From the NCBI RefSeq assembly GCF_025526975.1, contig NW_026515670.1, forward strand, positions 310,001-374,000: a stretch of DNA of 64,000 bases, in the 5' to 3' direction. How positions within the stretch are numbered: position 1 is the first letter of the stretch; each line of letters opens with the position of its first letter. The notes beneath the pieces are model-generated. The model was not told where the DNA came from. It did no database searches and saw only the letters and a list, made by a program, of their open reading frames with translations. The stretch is from Fimicolochytrium jonesii. Taxonomy: Eukaryota. The position numbers and the translations under genes were made by a program. Shown one piece after another: positions 36,456 to 64,000 of the stretch.

Positions 36456-38776
36456 ATGAAGTCTCCAGGCGCTTCGCAAAATCCCCACCATCCCCCCTCC
36501 CTCCAACTCCAATCTCAAGCCCTGGGCCTCCGCCAACGCACCGCCTGCGTCGAAAACCACCTCAACTGCCCCATCTGCAGCGACATCTTCGTCCTCCCCT
36601 TCCAACTCCAACAATGCGCCCACATCTACTGCCTGAACTGCATCCGCACCTGGATCCTGCACAAGCGCGAAAACGACGCTGTGGCGGATTGTCCCGAATG
36701 CAGGATGGAGATCACTACGAGACCGAAACACTGTAGCTTTGCGGCCAAGCTTATCGATTCGTATGTCGAGGTGTGTTTGAAGACACCGAACGTGGGCAGC
36801 TCGAGGGGGCAGAGGTGGGAGAGTGAGATGGATTGGGATCAGTCGCCTGTACGGCATCCGCCTTCCTCGTCGTCGTCGGCACCTGCATCCTCGTCGAGGG
36901 CCAATCCGTGGGCGGCTGTTAAGGAGAAGATCGAAGTCGCACGCGCACTTTTACGGAAGAAAAGTTTGGCGAGAACTCTCCCGTTTTTTGATTTGTTCCC
37001 GAACGAGGAGGATATGTTGATTTTCGATCATGAGGACGGCGTCAGGTTTGGGATTCTGTTTGGATAGGTCGTTCGTGGAGACCAAGCGCTTATCGCCCCC
37101 TTCTTCCTACAGTCGATGCTCGCGCTGCCACTGGGAGATCGAAGACGGCCGCTGCGTTGGCTGCGGACACGTATATAGCAGGCCCCAGGGTGCACCGCCA
37201 CATATAGCCGAGGAGGAGGAGGAGGAGGAAGATGACGAAGCTTACGAGGAGTCGTATACTTCCGATGACGGGTTTGTGGTGGATGATGATGAGCCTGACG
37301 ATGACGGTGGTGGCGGTGGTGGTGGTGCTGCAGGCAGAAGGACAAGGCTTGTATACGCAGAGGATACAGATGAGGACGAGGATGGACAGCCAGGGCCAAG
37401 CACGAACGGCAGCCGTCACGCTGCGGATATAACCTCAAGCGATGACGAAGCGAACGCCGGCCCATCGAACGGCAGACATCGTGCGGATATAACCTCAAGC
37501 GACGAAGATTCATACGTCGGCCGATCCGCGAACGGTCATACCCGTATCGCCGCAGACAGCTCGAGCGGAGAAGACGACGGGAGTGCGAGGCAGAGGAAGC
37601 GGAAACGGTCTAGGTTGATTGATGATGAGGCGGAGGAGGTTAGTGAGGAGAGTGATGAGGACGGGGGAGATAGTGATGATGGAGGTAAGTCTGCTCTGGG
37701 GCTCCCATACGTCTCATTCGATCCTTACTTTCCATTATCCAGTTCCCCACCGCCGCCGCCGTCTAAACCCCACCGACCAAACACGCGCCTACCTAAACGG
37801 GCTAGAAGGTAACTTCAACAACGACACTTCCGAAGAAGACGAAGCCGACTCCCCCGTGCAGCGGCGGCACCATTACAGCACCGAAGAAGAAGAGGATTCC
37901 CCCGTACGACACCATCACTACGACCCGGAAGAAGACGAAGAGGACTCCCCAAGGCCCCGTGTGGCCCGTCACCCTTACGACACCACGTCAGAAGAAGCCG
38001 GCTCCCCCGTACAGCACCACCACTACGACACCGAGGAAGAGGATTCATCCTCCCCACCACAACCACACCATCACCACGACACCGAGGAAGAGGAGGAGGA
38101 CTCCCCAGGGCCCCATGTGGCCCATCACCCTTACCACACGGCATCAGAGGAAGCGGACTCTCCCATACAGCACCACCACTACGACACCGAGGAAGACGAT
38201 TCACCCTCCCCACCACAACGCCACCGCCCATCCTCCTCCTCCTCCGACGACGACGATAGCGAATCGGACCATATTCAACCCCGGTCTCGCCGGCATGTCG
38301 CGGTCTCCTCCCCCTCGGACGACGACACAGAGGAAGAAGCTACAACCACCCACTCCCCGCCCCTCCGCACCAGCGAATCCGACCCCTCCATCGACTCACA
38401 GGACTCGGAATCACCGACCCACGCACAATCCCAATCGGACTCCCTACCCAGCTCCGAATCCGATGCGGAAGCAGAAGCTGCGGATGTCCGATCGGTGTCC
38501 CCCGCGGGTACGCTTGAGTCTGGTGGGGATGGAAGTGAACGCGGGCTGGAGAGTGGGGATGAGGAGATGGATGTGGCGCATTCGGATTCGGAATCCGAAG
38601 AGGGTGCGGCTGTGAGCGAGGGTGGGGAGGATATCGAGACTGGGAGTGGTAGTTCGAGTGAGAGTTCTGAGAGTTCTGAGAGTTCTGAGAGTTCCGAGAG
38701 TTCCGAGAGTTCCGAGAGCAGTGAGAGCTCTGAGAGTGAGAGTAGTAGTGAGGAGAGCGAGAGTGGGAGTGATTGA
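36456..38776 (+). CDS. PSH1: Psh1-like RING E3 ubiquitin ligase with long acidic tail
   Basis: C3HC4 RING (CPIC..CAHIYCLNC..CPEC), DHEDGV/RCSRCHWEIEDGRCVGC, D/E/S-rich tail; 2 introns. Confidence 0.75.
37840..38230 (+). repeat. coding tandem repeat (~156-nt period; HHHYDTEEE units) in the Psh1-like tail
   Basis: GTGGCCC(G/A)TCACCCTTAC recurs at 37961 and 38117; CACCACCACTACGACACCGAGGAAGA repeated. Confidence 0.85.
38660..38740 (+). repeat. 9-bp coding minisatellite (GAGAGTTCY)n encoding ESS
   Basis: Directly visible. Confidence 0.9.
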
Positions 38777-57088: not shown

Positions 57089-57477
57089 TGTGATTGTGAT
57101 TGAGCCATATCGATAACAGAGTTGAATTAAGTAGGCGTGGCACCTAGAGACACACCCCCTTCCCGCCCCCCGCCCCCCCCCACTATAAAAAGGACTCCAC
57201 CGGCGTAGATTAACCTAGGAGGCATTTCACAGCTATAGACTAGACCCTAAGTTTGTACCATATAGTGCCCATTGACCCAACTGACTAGCGTACCTACACC
57301 TAGCAGTTCGGGGTTGCCAATATACGGACTACCCCTAAGCGTGTCTACTTGTGCGGTTAGAATAGGCCTTTTAGTTGGTCTCTGCCTTTTACCTTGCACT
57401 CTCCACAAGTAGATCATCTCCACCTGCCAACAACCCAAATTAGGACCAATCTCAGGGAATGATTGACCACTTTCACA
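57089..57477 (+). mobile_element. 5' LTR of outer LTR retrotransposon
   Basis: TGTGA(TT)GTGAT...CACTTTCACA, internal TATAAAAAGG, clear homology (inverted) to LTR 58150-58567, followed by a PBS. Left boundary is less certain than the right. Confidence 0.8.
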
Positions 57478-57497: not shown

Positions 57498-58149
57498 AAA
57501 GAAGAGACCACCTTCAAGGAAAAACAAAGAAGGGATTACAAGGAATGTATGAGGTCATTTCCAGGAACGGATTGGCAAACCAGATCTGCCACCTTACAAG
57601 AAATCTACCCACGCGTCGAACTTTCTGTTCCCCTACGGAGAAGCGAGGCACCAATCTCCACCAGAGATTGAAGATCAGACGATAGATCTTCACCAAGATC
57701 AAGATAGCGAAACTGGCTGATGCAGAATTTGTCGCTAGTCTCCGCTCCTCAAGTTGTCCTCAAGCCGCTTGTCAACTCAGCAAGCAATTGCTGCGAGTAG
57801 TGCGACAGCCCAACAAGCATTCAACAAGCAGAAACGGCAGGCCCTAGCAGGCCAGAAAGTACACAAGTCCAAAGCCAAGGCTAAGTCCAAGGATTCCCCG
57901 TCTGAGGAACCCTCGCCCAAGAAATCTTTGCCCAAGGAATCCTTGCCCAAGCAATCGTTGCCACATCAGGGCTCAGCATCCGGTGTGAACCCGTCCCGGA
58001 CACCGGACTCACCTAGCAGTCCAGCTGCCCCCATACCAAGCCCACCTAGCAGTCAAGCTGCCCCCGTACAAAGCCCACCATCCCTGAACCCCCCCGTGCA
58101 TTCCCTCATTCAACCACCATCTACCTATCCATCCATCCATCCAGCCACT
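57498..58149 (+). mobile_element. decayed 5' internal region of the outer element, cut by the nested insertion
   Basis: Lies between the PBS and the inner element's LTR; broken low-complexity K/S/P-rich ORF. Confidence 0.6.
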
Positions 58150-58567
58150 TGTGAAAGTGGTTGATTATTCCCTGAGATAGGTCCTGAATTGGGTCGTTTG
58201 CGGGTGGAGATGATCTACTCGTGGAGAGTGCAAGGTAAAAGGTAGAGACCAACTAAATCCCTATTCTCACCACACAAGTAGACACACTCGGGCGTACTCC
58301 GTATATTGGCAACCCCGGACTGCTAGGCGTAGGTACGCTAGTCAGTTGGGTCAGTTCAGCTCCTATGGTACAAACTTATGGTCTAGTCTATCGCCGGTGA
58401 GAAGCTCTCTGGGCAATCTACGCCAGTGTCGTCCTTTTTATAGTGGGGGAGGAAGGGGGTGTGTCTCTATCCTACTACTGATCACGCCTGGTCACGCGCG
58501 CACAAATACTAATCTTCCCTTGAATCTCCCCATCTCCTCGTACGCCGTCAACCTGATCACTTTCACA
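58150..58567 (-). mobile_element. 3' LTR (418 bp) of inner Ty3/gypsy chromovirus
   Basis: 10-bp terminal inverted repeats TGTGAAAGTG...CACTTTCACA; TATA box; directly preceded on - strand by PPT AAAAGAAAGGAGGA (58581-58568). Confidence 0.9.
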
Positions 58568-60299
58568 TCCTCCTTTCTTTTGAGCTTTTCTCTAGGAGGG
58601 ATGCTCAGAAGGGTTCCGCCGTGGTACTCCCTGTATTTTGCAGAAACTAGCCTGTTGCACCATGTTGCCATGGTGTGGTAGCCTCCGGGAACCTCCGCTA
58701 CTTGGGCGGATGTGTTGGTGAAGTGGTGTTTGGTGTTTGAGGTCGTGGGGTGTCATAGGTTTGATCAATCAGCGCGCGCTGGATGGACCAGCGCGGGATG
58801 GTCCGGCACCGGATGGTCTTCTCTTCCCCGGAGTCGTGGTCTGGGTCGCTTCCTGACAAGCTTCTGCACTGAGCATGCGTACTTTGAGCCACCATCTGCG
58901 GAGCACTTCTTCGGCGGCGGACTCGGGGAGAGGGACGACGTGTTAGTAGTCAATGAGATTTGTCATTGACGGCGTGATCTTAGCTCGGAGCGTAGGACAA
59001 CGTGGTTGCGGGGGTGAGGTCGGAGGGGTGGTTGGGTACCGAGCGACAATTGCGTCCAGGATGTCGTCTATGGTGGCGTGCTCGCTGGCGGCAAGGCTAG
59101 AGTGGGCTCTGCGGGCAGCCTCTTGCTGCTTGAGGCGGGCGATCGGGGCGAAGTCGTCGACGCCTGCGGTGTAACGGGACAGCATGTTTCGCCTATCCTC
59201 GTTGAATTGATCTGGGTTGCCGATTTCGTCGCCGCTGGCGATGGAAGCGTGGCCAATGTAGATGTCTGGCGACTCCCGCAGGCTGGTCTTGAGGGTTTCA
59301 AGCTGACTTTGAGGGTCGAAGTTTACGTCGGCCTTGGGACGCTGGGCAATGTTGAGCCCCAGGGTAGGCCATGAGCCGCCTCGGTACTTCACCCAGGATT
59401 CCCGAAGTTCCTTCCGGCTATGGGCGTGCAGGACATCCCGTGGCGTCGTGGTGGGCTGACTGAAGCGCCAGGTGTTGAGCCAGCTCCATCCGGGCAGTGG
59501 TCCCCAATCCAGCACTGTGTGTTCTGCTAGCTGGGTGCGGACCAAGGTGATTGTGCCCGAGGGTGTGTCAGCGCAAAGATGCAAATTGCGGAAGGGAAGG
59601 TCTCCGGCAGAGAAGCTTGCGTGGACGTATTGGACGGTGAACCCATGGTTGTTGGGGTTCACGTGGCAGTCTACGGTCACGTTGTTGTTCATGAGACACA
59701 TAGTGCCTGGAGAGCCCGCAGGAATGTTGCGTTGACATTGGGCAGGGAGGTTTTCGATAACCTTGCTTCGTCAAGCATGGCCAGCGGGGTCGATCCATTT
59801 GTGGCAAATGGCCATGCGCTTGTGTGCCGTGGCATTCTCCGCAAATTCTAGGTATTCCGCCCACCCAAGGCCGTATCTCACATGTCGACTTTCTGCTGTG
59901 GGGCAAGAGAATTTGCCCTTGTTCGTCTCTCCCCCGGAGGTTGTTGTTGTCCACACCCCTCCGTGGAAGACCGCCTGTGCGTCCACTGCTGGGTGCCCCC
60001 GTTGAGTTCTGGACCTCGGTGATCCTCCGTGTTTTGCTACGCCCTTCGGTGTCCTCCATCCTTTCGCTTGAGCGAACCAAGGTCTCCGGTGGCAAGCCAT
60101 TTCAACGCCAGACTTGACCACAATTCAGACTCTACTCTTGGCACGCCGAACATCAGCTCCTTGTCCTCCGGCTTGTCTTTGGGTTTGGGGCCAAAGCTCG
60201 CTACGATGACCTCAAGTTCCCAAATGTCAAGGGAATCGTCCTGATCGCTTGGAACGCCCCGGAGAGGTGGTACAGTCACAGAAAGAAGAGAAAAATGTT

Positions 60300-60371
60300 T
60301 GGGGAAGGTAGGATTCGAACCCACGCCACCTGGGTGAGAGCCAGGTGTCTTAACCACTAAGCCAAAATATG
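60300..60371 (-). ncRNA. tRNA-Glu(CTC)-derived Pol III module in the TRIM 3' LTR (no acceptor stem)
   Basis: A-box TGGCTTAGTGG, anticodon arm CCTGG-CTCTCAC-CCAGG, T-arm GTGGG-TTCGAAT-CCTAC, T5 run just downstream. Confidence 0.8.
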
Positions 60372-60646
60372 TGTGTTCCCGTTACACCTCCCCTTGACTG
60401 TACCAGCCTCTCGGGTAGATGTACCAATGTATGGGTATGATGGACCAGTGGATCGGTCTTATTTTGGTTGGAGTACCAGCCCGGGTCTCTGGTCCGCTGT
60501 GGGGTACACAGGACCCGGTCGTTGGTATCGCAGTATATGTATGGTCCCGAGAAGGACTTGTGGTGCTACCATGTCAGGGGAATCGTTCCGATTGCTCGGA
60601 ACGCACCGGAGAGGTGGTACAGTCACAGAAAGAAGAGAAAAATGTT

Positions 60647-60718
60647 TGGGGAAGGTAGGAATCAAACCCACGCCACCTGGGTGAGAGCCAAATGTCTTAA
60701 CCACTAAGCCAAAATGGG
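60647..60718 (-). ncRNA. second, more decayed tRNA-Glu(CTC)-derived module in the TRIM 5' LTR
   Basis: Same sequence; B-box mutated to GGTTTGATTCC and anticodon stem partly broken. Confidence 0.7.
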
Positions 60719-62119
60719 TGTGTTCCCGTTACACCGAAGGTTGGGGCCTGCGTGGATAATGTAGTTGGGCTGGTCGACGCGGGGGAAGGCGGCTTGGCGG
60801 AGCAGTGCTTTTGGGTCCTCTAGGTCATCGCGAGTCTCTTGGATGCCGTGCTCTTTGCGGAGGGCCTTGGCACATTGCGCGTAGTGCGGCTCCAGGTTGG
60901 TAATGACAACAAAGACAGCTTGCTTCAAGATCAATTCCTTTTCCCAGTCTTGCATGTGGTTGTGAGCCTTCAATCGCGAGGTCAGCACCGGGTGGGGGAA
61001 GAGGCCGTGCACACGGGTGTACATGGTGGATGGGATGTCCGTATACTCCTTGTATAGGCTCGGGAGCATGACGGTTTCGATGTCCCTCCCTGCGACCCGG
61101 TATGGTTGGTCTTCCTCCATATCCCCCTCCCCTGTCTTCATCGCAAAGTCGGTCCTCCACTTGCCGTTCTCATGGTCATAGAGCGCCAGACGCAGTCCCC
61201 TCCTCTTGCCAACATTCGGATGCTTGGTTGCAGTGATCTTGCCGTTGGTTTCCACATTCTCCGGGAGGTCTTCTAGGCAAGGCGGGCAAACGAAGTTGTA
61301 CCGGTCGAAGTAATCCCTCAGGACTTCTTCGTCTTCCTGAGGGTGGGGCAGTCTCTGGTTGTTGAGGCATTCTGGTTGGTAGAATTGGCTTCCACAGCAG
61401 AGGTCTCCGGTTCGCATTGAACGACGCGACCATAAATGGAAGCGCTATCGTCTGGGTTTTTGCACATGCAAACAGCTCCATTCTTCTCTGCTCCGTAGTA
61501 CTCCTCTTCCTCTCCGGGCTAGTATTCCACGTTCCTGGTCAGGGTCTTGCTCGTGAACTTGTCCTCTCCCGGGTCCAGGCCGGAGATGCTGAGAGTGGCG
61601 GAGCCAATGATTGCTTTGCCTCTTTGTCGTTCTTCCGGCTTGTCCAACACCTTCCTTTTCTTGCGGGTGTCAACAGGGGTGTCGCCGGCATTTTGCACGG
61701 TGATTCTGGGCAAGCGGATTGGCGGACGTTTGTTCCCCGTTGCTTTCACTGGGGCGGGAGTACATGGGCCGGTGGCTTCTCTGAACCCTCTGTCGATCTG
61801 AGGGGGAGAGTTGTCAACCTCGATTGGTTTGTGGGGGTACACGGAGCGGACGGGGGTACTGGGGACCGGCGAGTTCGTTCGTTGGTTCTTGGTCCTGGTT
61901 GTTGGTTGCAGGATAGGCGGCTTCGAGACTGCATTGGACAGGTCTGCGACGCTCGATCTTCTTGAGGAGGTGGTGGAGGATCTTCGGGACATGATGGTCG
62001 GAATTCTCGTAGTACCGGTTCGGGGTTGGTAGGGGGGAAGGGGTAGCAAAGGAGCATGGTGGGGAGCGGTCGTCGGTTGGGGGCTGGTGAGGGTCGAGGG
62101 GAGCGGCTTCTGACGCTCG

Positions 62120-64000
62120 CTATTTATGCAGTTCCGAAGAGGGGGAATTCCCTTGGGTTCTGGGCGTTCTCTCCCTTCTGTCCTGCTGAGCATTCTCTTG
62201 CTGCACGTCTTGCTCCCGCTGGGCTGCTGGGTACTCCACCGACGTGGAAGATGCCAGTTGGTCCGCGGTTGCGTGCTTTTTTGCCCATTTTTTTTCCTCA
62301 TTCCCTGCTCCTGTGCCAACCAGCTGACCCTTTGTCCCTCCTTTGTTCTGCCTCCGCCCTGCGGCCTCTGTGGTATCCCCGCTCTTATCTCCTCCCCTTT
62401 TTTGAGACTTCTGCGTGGATTGTCTCGTGGTGTGGCGTAATTGCGTGCTGTCATCGCCGGTCTCGGTGTCCGCCGTAGGTGATTCGTCCCCAATGGTGAT
62501 GCCGTTTGCGCGACAGTACGTATCCAGTAGCTCCTGGCCTCCGAAGTCCGAGAGTACCACCCAGCTGTCGTGCCCAGTGTTCCAGTTTTTCCAGTGGACT
62601 TTGAATTCCCATTTCCCGTTGTTGCCCTGATGGTGGTCAACGATCTTCTTGACCTCCCATTCATCCTCAACAATGCCATCAGAGCCTTCCGAGTCCGTGT
62701 CCGGGTCAAGCCCTCGCTTCTTCAGTTCGTGGGACGTCCCATACGTTCTAGGCCTGAATGGCGTCTTCTTCAGGACTCGAGCTGTCGCTGTCTGTGCCAA
62801 TTGAGCTGTCGAAACTTCCTCTTTGTCCATCTCAATTAGCTCCGTCGGGTCCAGCGGTCGTCTGGCTGTGAATGGTCGCATGCGTCGGATATGGGCTGTC
62901 CGGTAGATGACTTCCACAGGCGAGACGAGTTCCATAAGCTTGTAGGTGTGGCCGGTGCCGCCGACACCTACTACCCGGTGTGGTCCACTCCATTTGGCAG
63001 CGAACTTCTTGATGGCCGTCGCATTTTCCACATCGGTCGACTTGCGAAACTGAGGAATTGCCAGCCAGACTCGTTCTCCTAGCTGGTAGCTTGTCTTCTC
63101 GGAGTTCTTGTCGTACCACACCTTTTGTCGTGCTTGGGCTTTGGCGACGTTCTCCTTGGCCAAATCCCATGCAATCTGCAGGCGCCTGACAATCTCCGCT
63201 CGCAAGTCCCCGACCGGCATTGCTCCTTTCCCAATCGACCCCCATGGCTCCGTTGGCGTGTGGGATTTCTCCCACAAGAACCCCGGCATCTGGGGGTCGC
63301 GTCCGAACATCAGGTAGAATGGCAGCTCCAAAGTCGATGATTGCATCATGGTCCGATGAGCGAACAAGATGTACGGAAGTTGTCGGTCCTAGTCGTGGTG
63401 GGTGTACTCGTTCACGTAGGTCTGGATCATCTTCGAGAGCGTCTTGATTGTGTTCTCCGCAAGCCCATTGGATGGTGGGTGGTAGGGCGACGCTAATGCT
63501 GGGGCAGCCCCCAGTAGTTTCAGGAGAGCCTTCTGAACCTCGCTCGTGAAGGGCTGTCCACAGTCCGACGTTATCACTCCGGGGACCCCGAAGATGGTGA
63601 ATACATGCTCCATAAGTGCCCGGGCAACCGTGTACGCCTTTGCGTCCTTCAATGGAATTGCGAAGCAGAATTTGCTGGCGTAGTTGATGACAACGAGTAC
63701 GTATTTGAACTTCGTATTCCTTGTAGCCGGCAAAGGTCCGAGCGAGTCCATTCCGACCCGCCACCACACGTCTCCAATGACAATTGGGTCCATCTCTCCT
63801 CCTCTCGCAGACTTTGGCATTTCCGGCTTGTGCTGATTGCATTTGACGCAACTGGCAAGGGGATTGATCATGTCCGCCACGCATTCCGGCCACCAGAAGG
63901 ACTGTTGGAGTCTGCTGAAGGTTTTGTCTCTGCCCAGATGTCCTGCCAACAGGTCGTCGTGGCAGAGCTCCAGGCATTGTCATCGCAATTTGGCCGGTAC
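62120..64000 (-). mobile_element. Ty3/gypsy pol 3' part: integrase (HHCC, DDE, GPY/F) + chromodomain; premature stop at 63389-63391
   Basis: HDDLLAGH..CVKC, VGMD..ITSD..NGLAE, KWSGPH, EWEVKKIVDH..FKVHWKNW..DSW; TAG where the D-W-D Trp is expected. Confidence 0.95.

Follow-up and report, generated by a model that had tools for sequence, protein, structure and literature searches.

What kind of element carries a tRNA-like segment inside both of its flanking repeats, and by which polymerase would it be expressed? These questions are raised by a locus in the window, that is, the whole stretch of 64,000 nucleotides from contig NW_026515670.1 of Fimicolochytrium jonesii analysed here. The host belongs to the Spizellomycetales within the Chytridiomycota. 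The preliminary description had placed a complete miniature LTR element at this locus, with TG...CA LTRs of 162 bp and an interior of 185 bp, and these coordinates proved exact. The element is a TRIM of 509 bp (162 + 185 + 162) at 60225..60733 on the minus strand, with the following parts.

60572..60733, minus strand: 5′ LTR, TGTAAC...TGACA, 162 bp
60564..60571, minus strand: PBS-like TGGTAGCA, starting at base 1 after the 5′ LTR
60387..60571, minus strand: interior, 185 bp
60387..60395, minus strand: PPT AAGGGGAGG, its last base directly before the 3′ LTR
60225..60386, minus strand: 3′ LTR, TGTAAC...TGACA, 162 bp, identical to the 5′ LTR at 150 of 162 positions
60584..60603, minus strand: a listed segment inside the 5′ LTR
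60734..60738, minus strand: upstream copy of the TSD, TTCGG on the minus strand
60220..60224, minus strand: downstream copy of the TSD, TTTGG on the minus strand, with one CpG-type transition

The LTR repeat is far above chance (E 8.7e-65 in a self-BLAST of the window). The two copies differ by 12 mismatches, comprising nine transitions and three transversions (K2P 0.079), and four of the 12 are CpG-type transitions. Retrotransposon enzymes would not fit into the interior. As had been claimed, the PBS and the PPT abut the 5′ and the 3′ LTR, respectively, both without a gap. The motif TGGTAGCA is unique within the window when both strands are scanned; it likely pairs with the 3′ end of initiator tRNA-Met, and priming by this tRNA is supported at the level of the motif.

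The TRIM lies within a chromodomain-bearing Gypsy-type element, about 2 kb downstream of the integrase and chromodomain frames, about 1.7 kb upstream of what is likely that element's 3′ LTR, and in sense orientation relative to the Gypsy-type ORF.

62120..63979, minus strand: integrase (zinc-binding and core) and chromodomain frames of the host element
58772..61950, minus strand: extra ORF region of the host element, split by the TRIM
58150..58567, minus strand: sequence that is likely the host element's 3′ LTR; its 10-bp ends are inverted, and a purine tract lies upstream

The flanks read CCAAA/CCGAA, a match at four of five bases, and when lengths from 3 to 9 were compared no other fitted as well. 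After excision of the TRIM together with one TSD copy, a single frame is open for 235 codons upstream and 62 downstream, the other frames giving 27/7 and 28/4. When the upstream frame was searched as a protein query, four paralogues were retrieved, all from one species. Three of them run continuously over the site, reading GPNL-W-ELE in two cases and GPNL-R-ELE in one, and the fourth is without the site-spanning stretch. The window itself reads GPNL-R before the TRIM and W-ELE after it, the two residues matching the two TSD copies. The codon register relative to the three uninserted paralogues therefore sets the TSD length at 5 bp, and the mismatch is explained as a CpG transition, since the same change is found among these paralogues. 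Thus the paralogues and the restored frame bear out the 5-bp TSD with one mismatch that had been proposed.

In LTR coordinates, the tRNA-like cassette of each LTR has its A-box at 23-33, a CTC loop within 45-55, the B-box at 66-76 and a T5 run at 92-96, such that 22 bases precede the A-box and 66 further LTR bases follow the T5 run.

60701..60711, minus strand: A-box of the 5′ LTR, same sequence as the 3′ copy
60354..60364, minus strand: A-box of the 3′ LTR, same sequence as the 5′ copy
60679..60689, minus strand: anticodon-like loop of the 5′ LTR, its stem weakened by CC to TT
60332..60342, minus strand: anticodon-like CTC loop of the 3′ LTR, a 7-base loop on a 5-bp stem
60658..60668, minus strand: B-box of the 5′ LTR, GGTTTGATTCC, in which the equivalents of C56 and A59 have both changed to T
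60311..60321, minus strand: B-box of the 3′ LTR, GGTTCGAATCC, consensus
60638..60642, minus strand: T5 run of the 5′ LTR; as a candidate Pol III terminator, it has to be read through for a full-length RNA
60291..60295, minus strand: T5 run of the 3′ LTR

The A-box is TGGCTTAGTGG in both LTRs, and the core of box B is GGTTC in the 3′ LTR versus GGTTT in the 5′ LTR. It had been stated that every LTR has an A-box, a CTC arm, a B-box and a T5 run; this holds in both LTRs for all but the B-box, which is of consensus type only in the 3′ copy. With the Rfam tRNA model, whose gathering score is 29, the two LTRs reach 35.8 bits and 26.6 bits, the 3′ LTR being the one above that score, and the two cassettes account for two of the three Rfam matches at E<=0.5 across the whole window. 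ARAGORN reports the 3′ cassette only, as tRNA-??? with no isotype, and neither ARAGORN nor Rfam detects any other tRNA gene in the window. On folding, the 3′ copy forms the anticodon and T arms, and the 5′ copy has no stable tRNA-like fold; the lack of a pairable acceptor stem, already noted in the preliminary description, was confirmed by this analysis.

The B-box, 11 bases long, holds two of the 12 LTR-LTR mismatches, and its conservation is no better than that of the remaining LTR. Decay after insertion is expected to be neutral, which bears on this comparison between the two LTRs. With an LTR divergence of 7.9% and a mutated 5′ B-box, the TRIM copy is likely inactive; judged from its sequence, the 5′ cassette has lost the conserved B-box C, and the copy is likely dead.

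How does this element relate to known ones? In the available text of Kojima 2024 (PMC10886601), a Helenus, also named TRIMp3, is a TRIM carrying a tRNA-derived segment in its LTR, with boxes A (TRGCY, YGG) and B (GGTTC), a size of 311-1263 bp and, in fungi, 5-bp TSDs. The present TRIM has a short non-coding interior and stays, at 509 bp, below the approximate limit of 1000 bp; its LTRs hold tRNA-like sequence with box A and box B (GGTTC only in the 3′ LTR); a PBS follows the 5′ LTR and a PPT precedes the 3′ LTR; and the TSD is 5 bp long (4/5 match). It fits Helenus, a kind published in 2024, and constitutes no new class, and its chytrid host belongs to a phylum outside the paper's fungal list, which in Table 1, as far as the available text goes, names only Basidiomycota, namely Pucciniales and three Agaricomycetes. 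The word 'chytrid' has no occurrence in a keyword search of PMC10886601, and a paper search found no literature report of a chytrid LTR retrotransposon that is non-autonomous and has a tRNA-derived part. Among fungi, Helenus thereby reaches beyond Basidiomycota into Chytridiomycota, a point of relevance to whether there is a single very old fungal lineage or several origins.

The nearest listed relatives are Helenus-1_CCin and Helenus-1_AmAr, two Agaricomycete families whose interiors, Helenus-1_CCin-I and Helenus-1_AmAr-I, open with the same eight bases TGGTAGCA (PMC10886601). Shared with fungal Helenus are a TRIM length under 1 kb, an A/B-box segment followed by a T run in both LTRs, a spacer-less PBS starting TGGTAGCA, a PPT, a 5-bp TSD and a tRNA-like part that is unlikely to be a working tRNA. 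The differences lie in the host (Basidiomycota versus Chytridiomycota), in the ends TGTAAC...TGACA, and in the cassette, which in the published fungal elements mostly sits in the 3′ part of the LTR, as far as these are described, but here starts at LTR position 23. Many published Helenus LTRs appear by eye, in the portion available, to have T4 only, and the TRIM has T5. Since four family-specific motifs of the TRIM have no match in the whole supplement of PMC10886601, where two generic motifs did match, the element is on sequence grounds a new Helenus family, set apart by this motif test and by a by-eye comparison rather than by alignment. All 16 matches of TGTAACGG in the supplement fall in animal families, and animal Helenus families are linked to Gypsy in the available text (PMC10886601).

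Cassandra and Ajax are TRIMs whose LTRs carry 5S rRNA-derived (type 1) promoters, according to the same text (PMC10886601). The present element shares with them a small-RNA-derived Pol III promoter in TRIM LTRs, here a putative one, but has a tRNA-type cassette instead; a 5S rRNA-derived segment is absent from the LTR, where the Rfam match is to tRNA only. The anatomy and the Rfam result thus uphold its description as an analogue of Cassandra with a tRNA-type cassette.

A comparison set was assembled by scanning metagenome contigs with a generic pattern of B-box, gap, LTR end and PBS, which gave 66 loci. A filter for LTR pairs kept 29 loci (30 rows), mostly of one family and falling into four family groups. 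Among the 37 loci that were removed are a few truncated main-family members (e.g. L005 and L052); the rest resemble chance or prokaryotic tRNA matches. Perfect 5-bp TSDs are present in 13 of the 23 rows with both flanks (three duplicate pairs among the 13); the TSD is imperfect or absent in the other 10, and seven rows are without a measurable right flank. These Helenus-type families (loci L004-L064) have in common with the TRIM the PBS start, the A-box, the B-box and a T-rich run, the last of which follows the B-box in all six representatives. They differ in their ends, with 29 of 30 rows beginning TGTTGG and 30 of 30 ending AACA, and in the A-box, which starts at positions 37-65 in the 30 rows versus 23 in the TRIM. 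A BLAST of the TRIM against the 66 loci gave no match at E<=0.1.

The scan pattern included the B-box and excluded the A-box, and agreement in the B-box is thus by construction. At the A-box, the TRIM agrees with six representative metagenome LTRs at 9-10 of 12 bases (equalled by 0-1 of 200 shuffles), and the LTR part upstream of the A-box is at chance level against the same six (50-178 of 200 shuffles as good). With one family, L036, the likeness extends to the stretch between the boxes (21/31 bases, 0/200 shuffles) and weakly to the downstream part (45/86, 2/200 shuffles). In the main metagenome group, five of 23 columns in the boxes are variable versus 56 of 119 elsewhere, a weak contrast given that the B-box was in the search pattern. 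The cassette had been called an independent fungal solution. It is indeed of tRNA type, but the kind was already published, and the likeness to L036 beyond the boxes leaves common descent possible and disfavours assuming an independent origin, which is itself possible for the chytrid cassette.

A further feature of the TRIM is a complementarity between the LTR downstream of the T5 run and the interior just before the PPT.

60604..60625, minus strand: LTR positions 109-130, after the T5 run; this segment complements the pre-PPT interior and has a second copy at 60257..60278
60395..60417, minus strand: pre-PPT segment, predicted partner strand of the helix, pair probabilities 0.75-1.0

The U5 and pre-PPT segments are complementary at 20 of 22 aligned columns, a score attained by none of 2000 dinucleotide shuffles, and a 20-bp U5/pre-PPT helix is predicted in the TRIM RNA by the folding model (transcript fold z -3.4 against 100 shuffles). 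In a weaker continuation of the helix (about 0.6), the PPT is paired with the pyrimidine tract behind T5, and the full-length fold also allows the pre-PPT segment to bind the copy in the 3′ LTR. The best interior complement likewise lies beside the PPT in 27 of 30 metagenome rows, with its partner in U3 and modest scores of 16-25; such a pre-PPT/U3 complement is found in two of the four family groups, and a hairpin of this kind in L035 and L036 is unsupported. In the main metagenome family, one position is altered on both sides of the helix (A:T 9, T:A 3, of 32 junctions), a two-sided change that is probably a single event. Several published fungal and fish Helenus families appear by eye, in the part available, to have the same U3 complement; in the TRIM the complement is 3′ of the cassette and not in U3. 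The main text of PMC10886601 makes no mention of such pairing ('hairpin' 0, 'inverted' 0). Long-range pairing between the 5′ and 3′ regions of LTR retrotransposon RNA is described for the CYC5/CYC3 cyclization of Ty1 in the available text of PMC7969010. Ty1, however, is autonomous and several kilobases long, and the TRIM helix is predicted only and joins an LTR segment upstream of the PBS to pre-PPT bases. Seen in this TRIM as well as in other Helenus-type families, the pre-PPT/LTR pairing may act as a signal in replication.

The best explanation, which we consider probable, is that the locus is a decayed Helenus-type TRIM copy in the extra ORF of a chromodomain-bearing chytrid Gypsy-type element, and that active copies of the family are likely transcribed by Pol III from the cassette. 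Type 2 promoters initiate transcription a short distance upstream of the A-box, and TFIIIC needs C56 of the B-box for binding. In an active element, both boxes of the 5′ LTR would be occupied by TFIIIC, with Pol III starting a few bases into the LTR. A start within the first LTR bases means that U3 would be very short and that the tRNA-like part would be the R region. A minority of polymerases would read past T5 and transcribe U5, PBS, interior and PPT before terminating at the T5 of the 3′ LTR or further on; an active element would thus give short tRNA-like RNA in plenty and full-length RNA more rarely. By analogy with Ty1, the U5 segment and the pre-PPT bases may pair with the interior looped out, bringing the ends together for strand transfer. 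For packaging and for reverse transcription, primed by initiator tRNA-Met, the RNA would depend on an autonomous LTR element, and integration would generate the 5-bp TSD. Later decay would include the loss of the B-box C in the 5′ LTR, and this copy is probably no longer a source element. A small complete TRIM like this one is usable for testing whether Pol III drives Helenus and how a full-length RNA gets past its own terminator.

Which autonomous element would supply the enzymes? No partner sharing PBS and termini was found in the window, where the LTR of the host element was compared. Nesting in the Gypsy-type element does not identify the partner, because the LTR ends of that element differ from those of the TRIM. 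In the available text of PMC5445492, GalEa Copia elements have a PBS that starts with the same eight bases, is complementary to tRNA-Met and lies directly after the LTR. We slightly favour Copia over Gypsy as the partner. The spacer-less PBS, together with the available text of PMC10886601, points to Copia, and the termini hint at Gypsy.

Several other readings have to be weighed against this one. Less probably, and at most as a tentative proposal, the locus may represent a lineage of tRNA-promoter TRIMs that arose separately in chytrids and that has, unlike other fungal Helenus, a Gypsy partner; it would have almost no U3, and its U5/pre-PPT helix, extended by pairing of the terminator tract with the PPT, would circularise the RNA. 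If true, PPT-adjacent pairing would serve Helenus generally as a cis-signal, able to shift from U3 into U5. A rather improbable reading accepts the Helenus-type anatomy and has Pol II make the mobile RNA, from an LTR promoter or by read-through from the host, the cassette being a passenger SINE remnant or a structural signal in the RNA and T5 irrelevant. For yeast Pol III the fifth T triggers transcript release, as stated in the available text of bioRxiv 10.1101/2023.02.28.530554, so that the T5 present in both LTRs may be a real block and read-through may be poor. The TRIM also stands in sense orientation within a Gypsy-type ORF, an RNA running through the whole 3′ LTR lets the pre-PPT segment pair with the 3′ LTR copy, and Kojima proposed the Pol III function of Helenus without validation, as far as the available text of PMC10886601 tells. 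However, what unrelated families have in common is the A and B boxes at tRNA-like spacing, and the acceptor stem has gone, a pattern consistent with selection on promoter DNA; the 22 bases before the A-box are scant space for a Pol II promoter.

It is far less likely that an ordinary TRIM or LTR pair captured a tRNA or SINE fragment once, without amplification as a family. Self-BLAST revealed no second copy in the window, family-specific motif scans gave no match in metagenome contigs or in viral contigs, the generic B-box/PBS pattern had none in viral contigs, and the BLAST against the 66 metagenome loci was likewise empty at the threshold given above. These copy searches covered only the window and the metagenome and viral contigs, however, and the cassettes stand in register in both LTRs, so that reverse transcription and integration must have occurred at least once since the capture. 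That the LTRs hold a functional tRNA-Glu(CTC) gene is scarcely credible, although CTC does occupy a 7-base loop on a 5-bp stem and the 3′ LTR exceeds the Rfam gathering threshold. The acceptor stem is absent, no isotype is given by ARAGORN, and in the 5′ copy the anticodon stem and the T-loop have lost bases; no cloverleaf with a paired acceptor stem emerged from ARAGORN, Rfam or folding. Of the tRNA-Glu gene around which the LTRs were said to be built, only the CTC triplet stands. In many Helenus families the anticodon disagrees with the isotype model, according to the available text of PMC10886601. LTRs that bear such tRNA-like sequence falsely raise annotated tRNA gene counts.

Two observations concern the Gypsy-type host element: its extra ORF gives weak PHD-like leads only in Atlas (scores up to 0.85), and its PBS lies beyond the window. 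Elsewhere in the window, an acyl-CoA dehydrogenase frame (465-aa query) is 100% identical over 99% of its length to a Fimicolochytrium jonesii protein, other chytrids reaching <=67%.

Each LTR of the TRIM, a 509-bp Helenus-type element, carries further features around its tRNA-like cassette. These features, together with those of the Gypsy-type host element whose extra ORF the TRIM interrupts, are as follows (window coordinates).

60711-60714 and 60364-60367: T4 run immediately 5′ of the A-box, one per TRIM LTR
60723-60727 and 60649-60653: GGGAA close to the beginning of the LTR and TTCCC following the T arm, with pairing predicted by folding
58150-63979, minus strand: host Gypsy-type element with a long extra ORF after the chromodomain
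57145-57477, orientation opposite to the host 3′ LTR: second LTR-like copy

The T4 run in the TRIM 3′ LTR could act as an early terminator, in which case it could yield a short R region like that described for Cassandra. It was not observed in the six metagenome representatives of Helenus-type LTRs compared with the TRIM LTR. Speculatively, the modelled GGGAA/TTCCC pairing resembles an acceptor stem, shifted in position by ~11 bases.

At the other end of the interior, six metagenome-contig loci (L007, L009, L012, L038, L054 and L058) have a predicted hairpin in which bases preceding the PPT pair with the beginning of the 3′ LTR, with one change on both sides among variants. By eye, this hairpin is also visible in several published Helenus consensus sequences. 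The metagenome loci L004-L064 include an unnamed multi-copy Helenus-type family (e.g. L007, L009, L028 and L032) with a unit of ~365 bp, comprising 142-bp LTRs and an 81-bp interior, with perfect 5-bp TSDs; LTR-interior arrays also occur in tandem with a period of 223-224. Additional Helenus-type families are represented by L035, L036/L056 and L038.

The extra ORF of the host element is ~800-880 aa long in paralogues, and one segment of it is rich in Cys/His and weakly PHD-like. The search returned four relatives, all within Fimicolochytrium jonesii. The LTR-like copy at 57145-57477 shares 83% identity over 335 bp, as well as terminal bases, with the host 3′ LTR, and is possibly a solo or truncated LTR.

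Short tandem duplications occur at two places: a 33-bp unit is present twice at 58010-58075, and degenerate repeats lie at ~37.4-38.2 kb (37403-38225). Ordinary host genes occupy 4000-57000, encoding SF3b1, acyl-CoA dehydrogenase, an MFS transporter, a kinase, multicopper oxidase, haem peroxidase, F-box and Nrd1/Seb1-like proteins.
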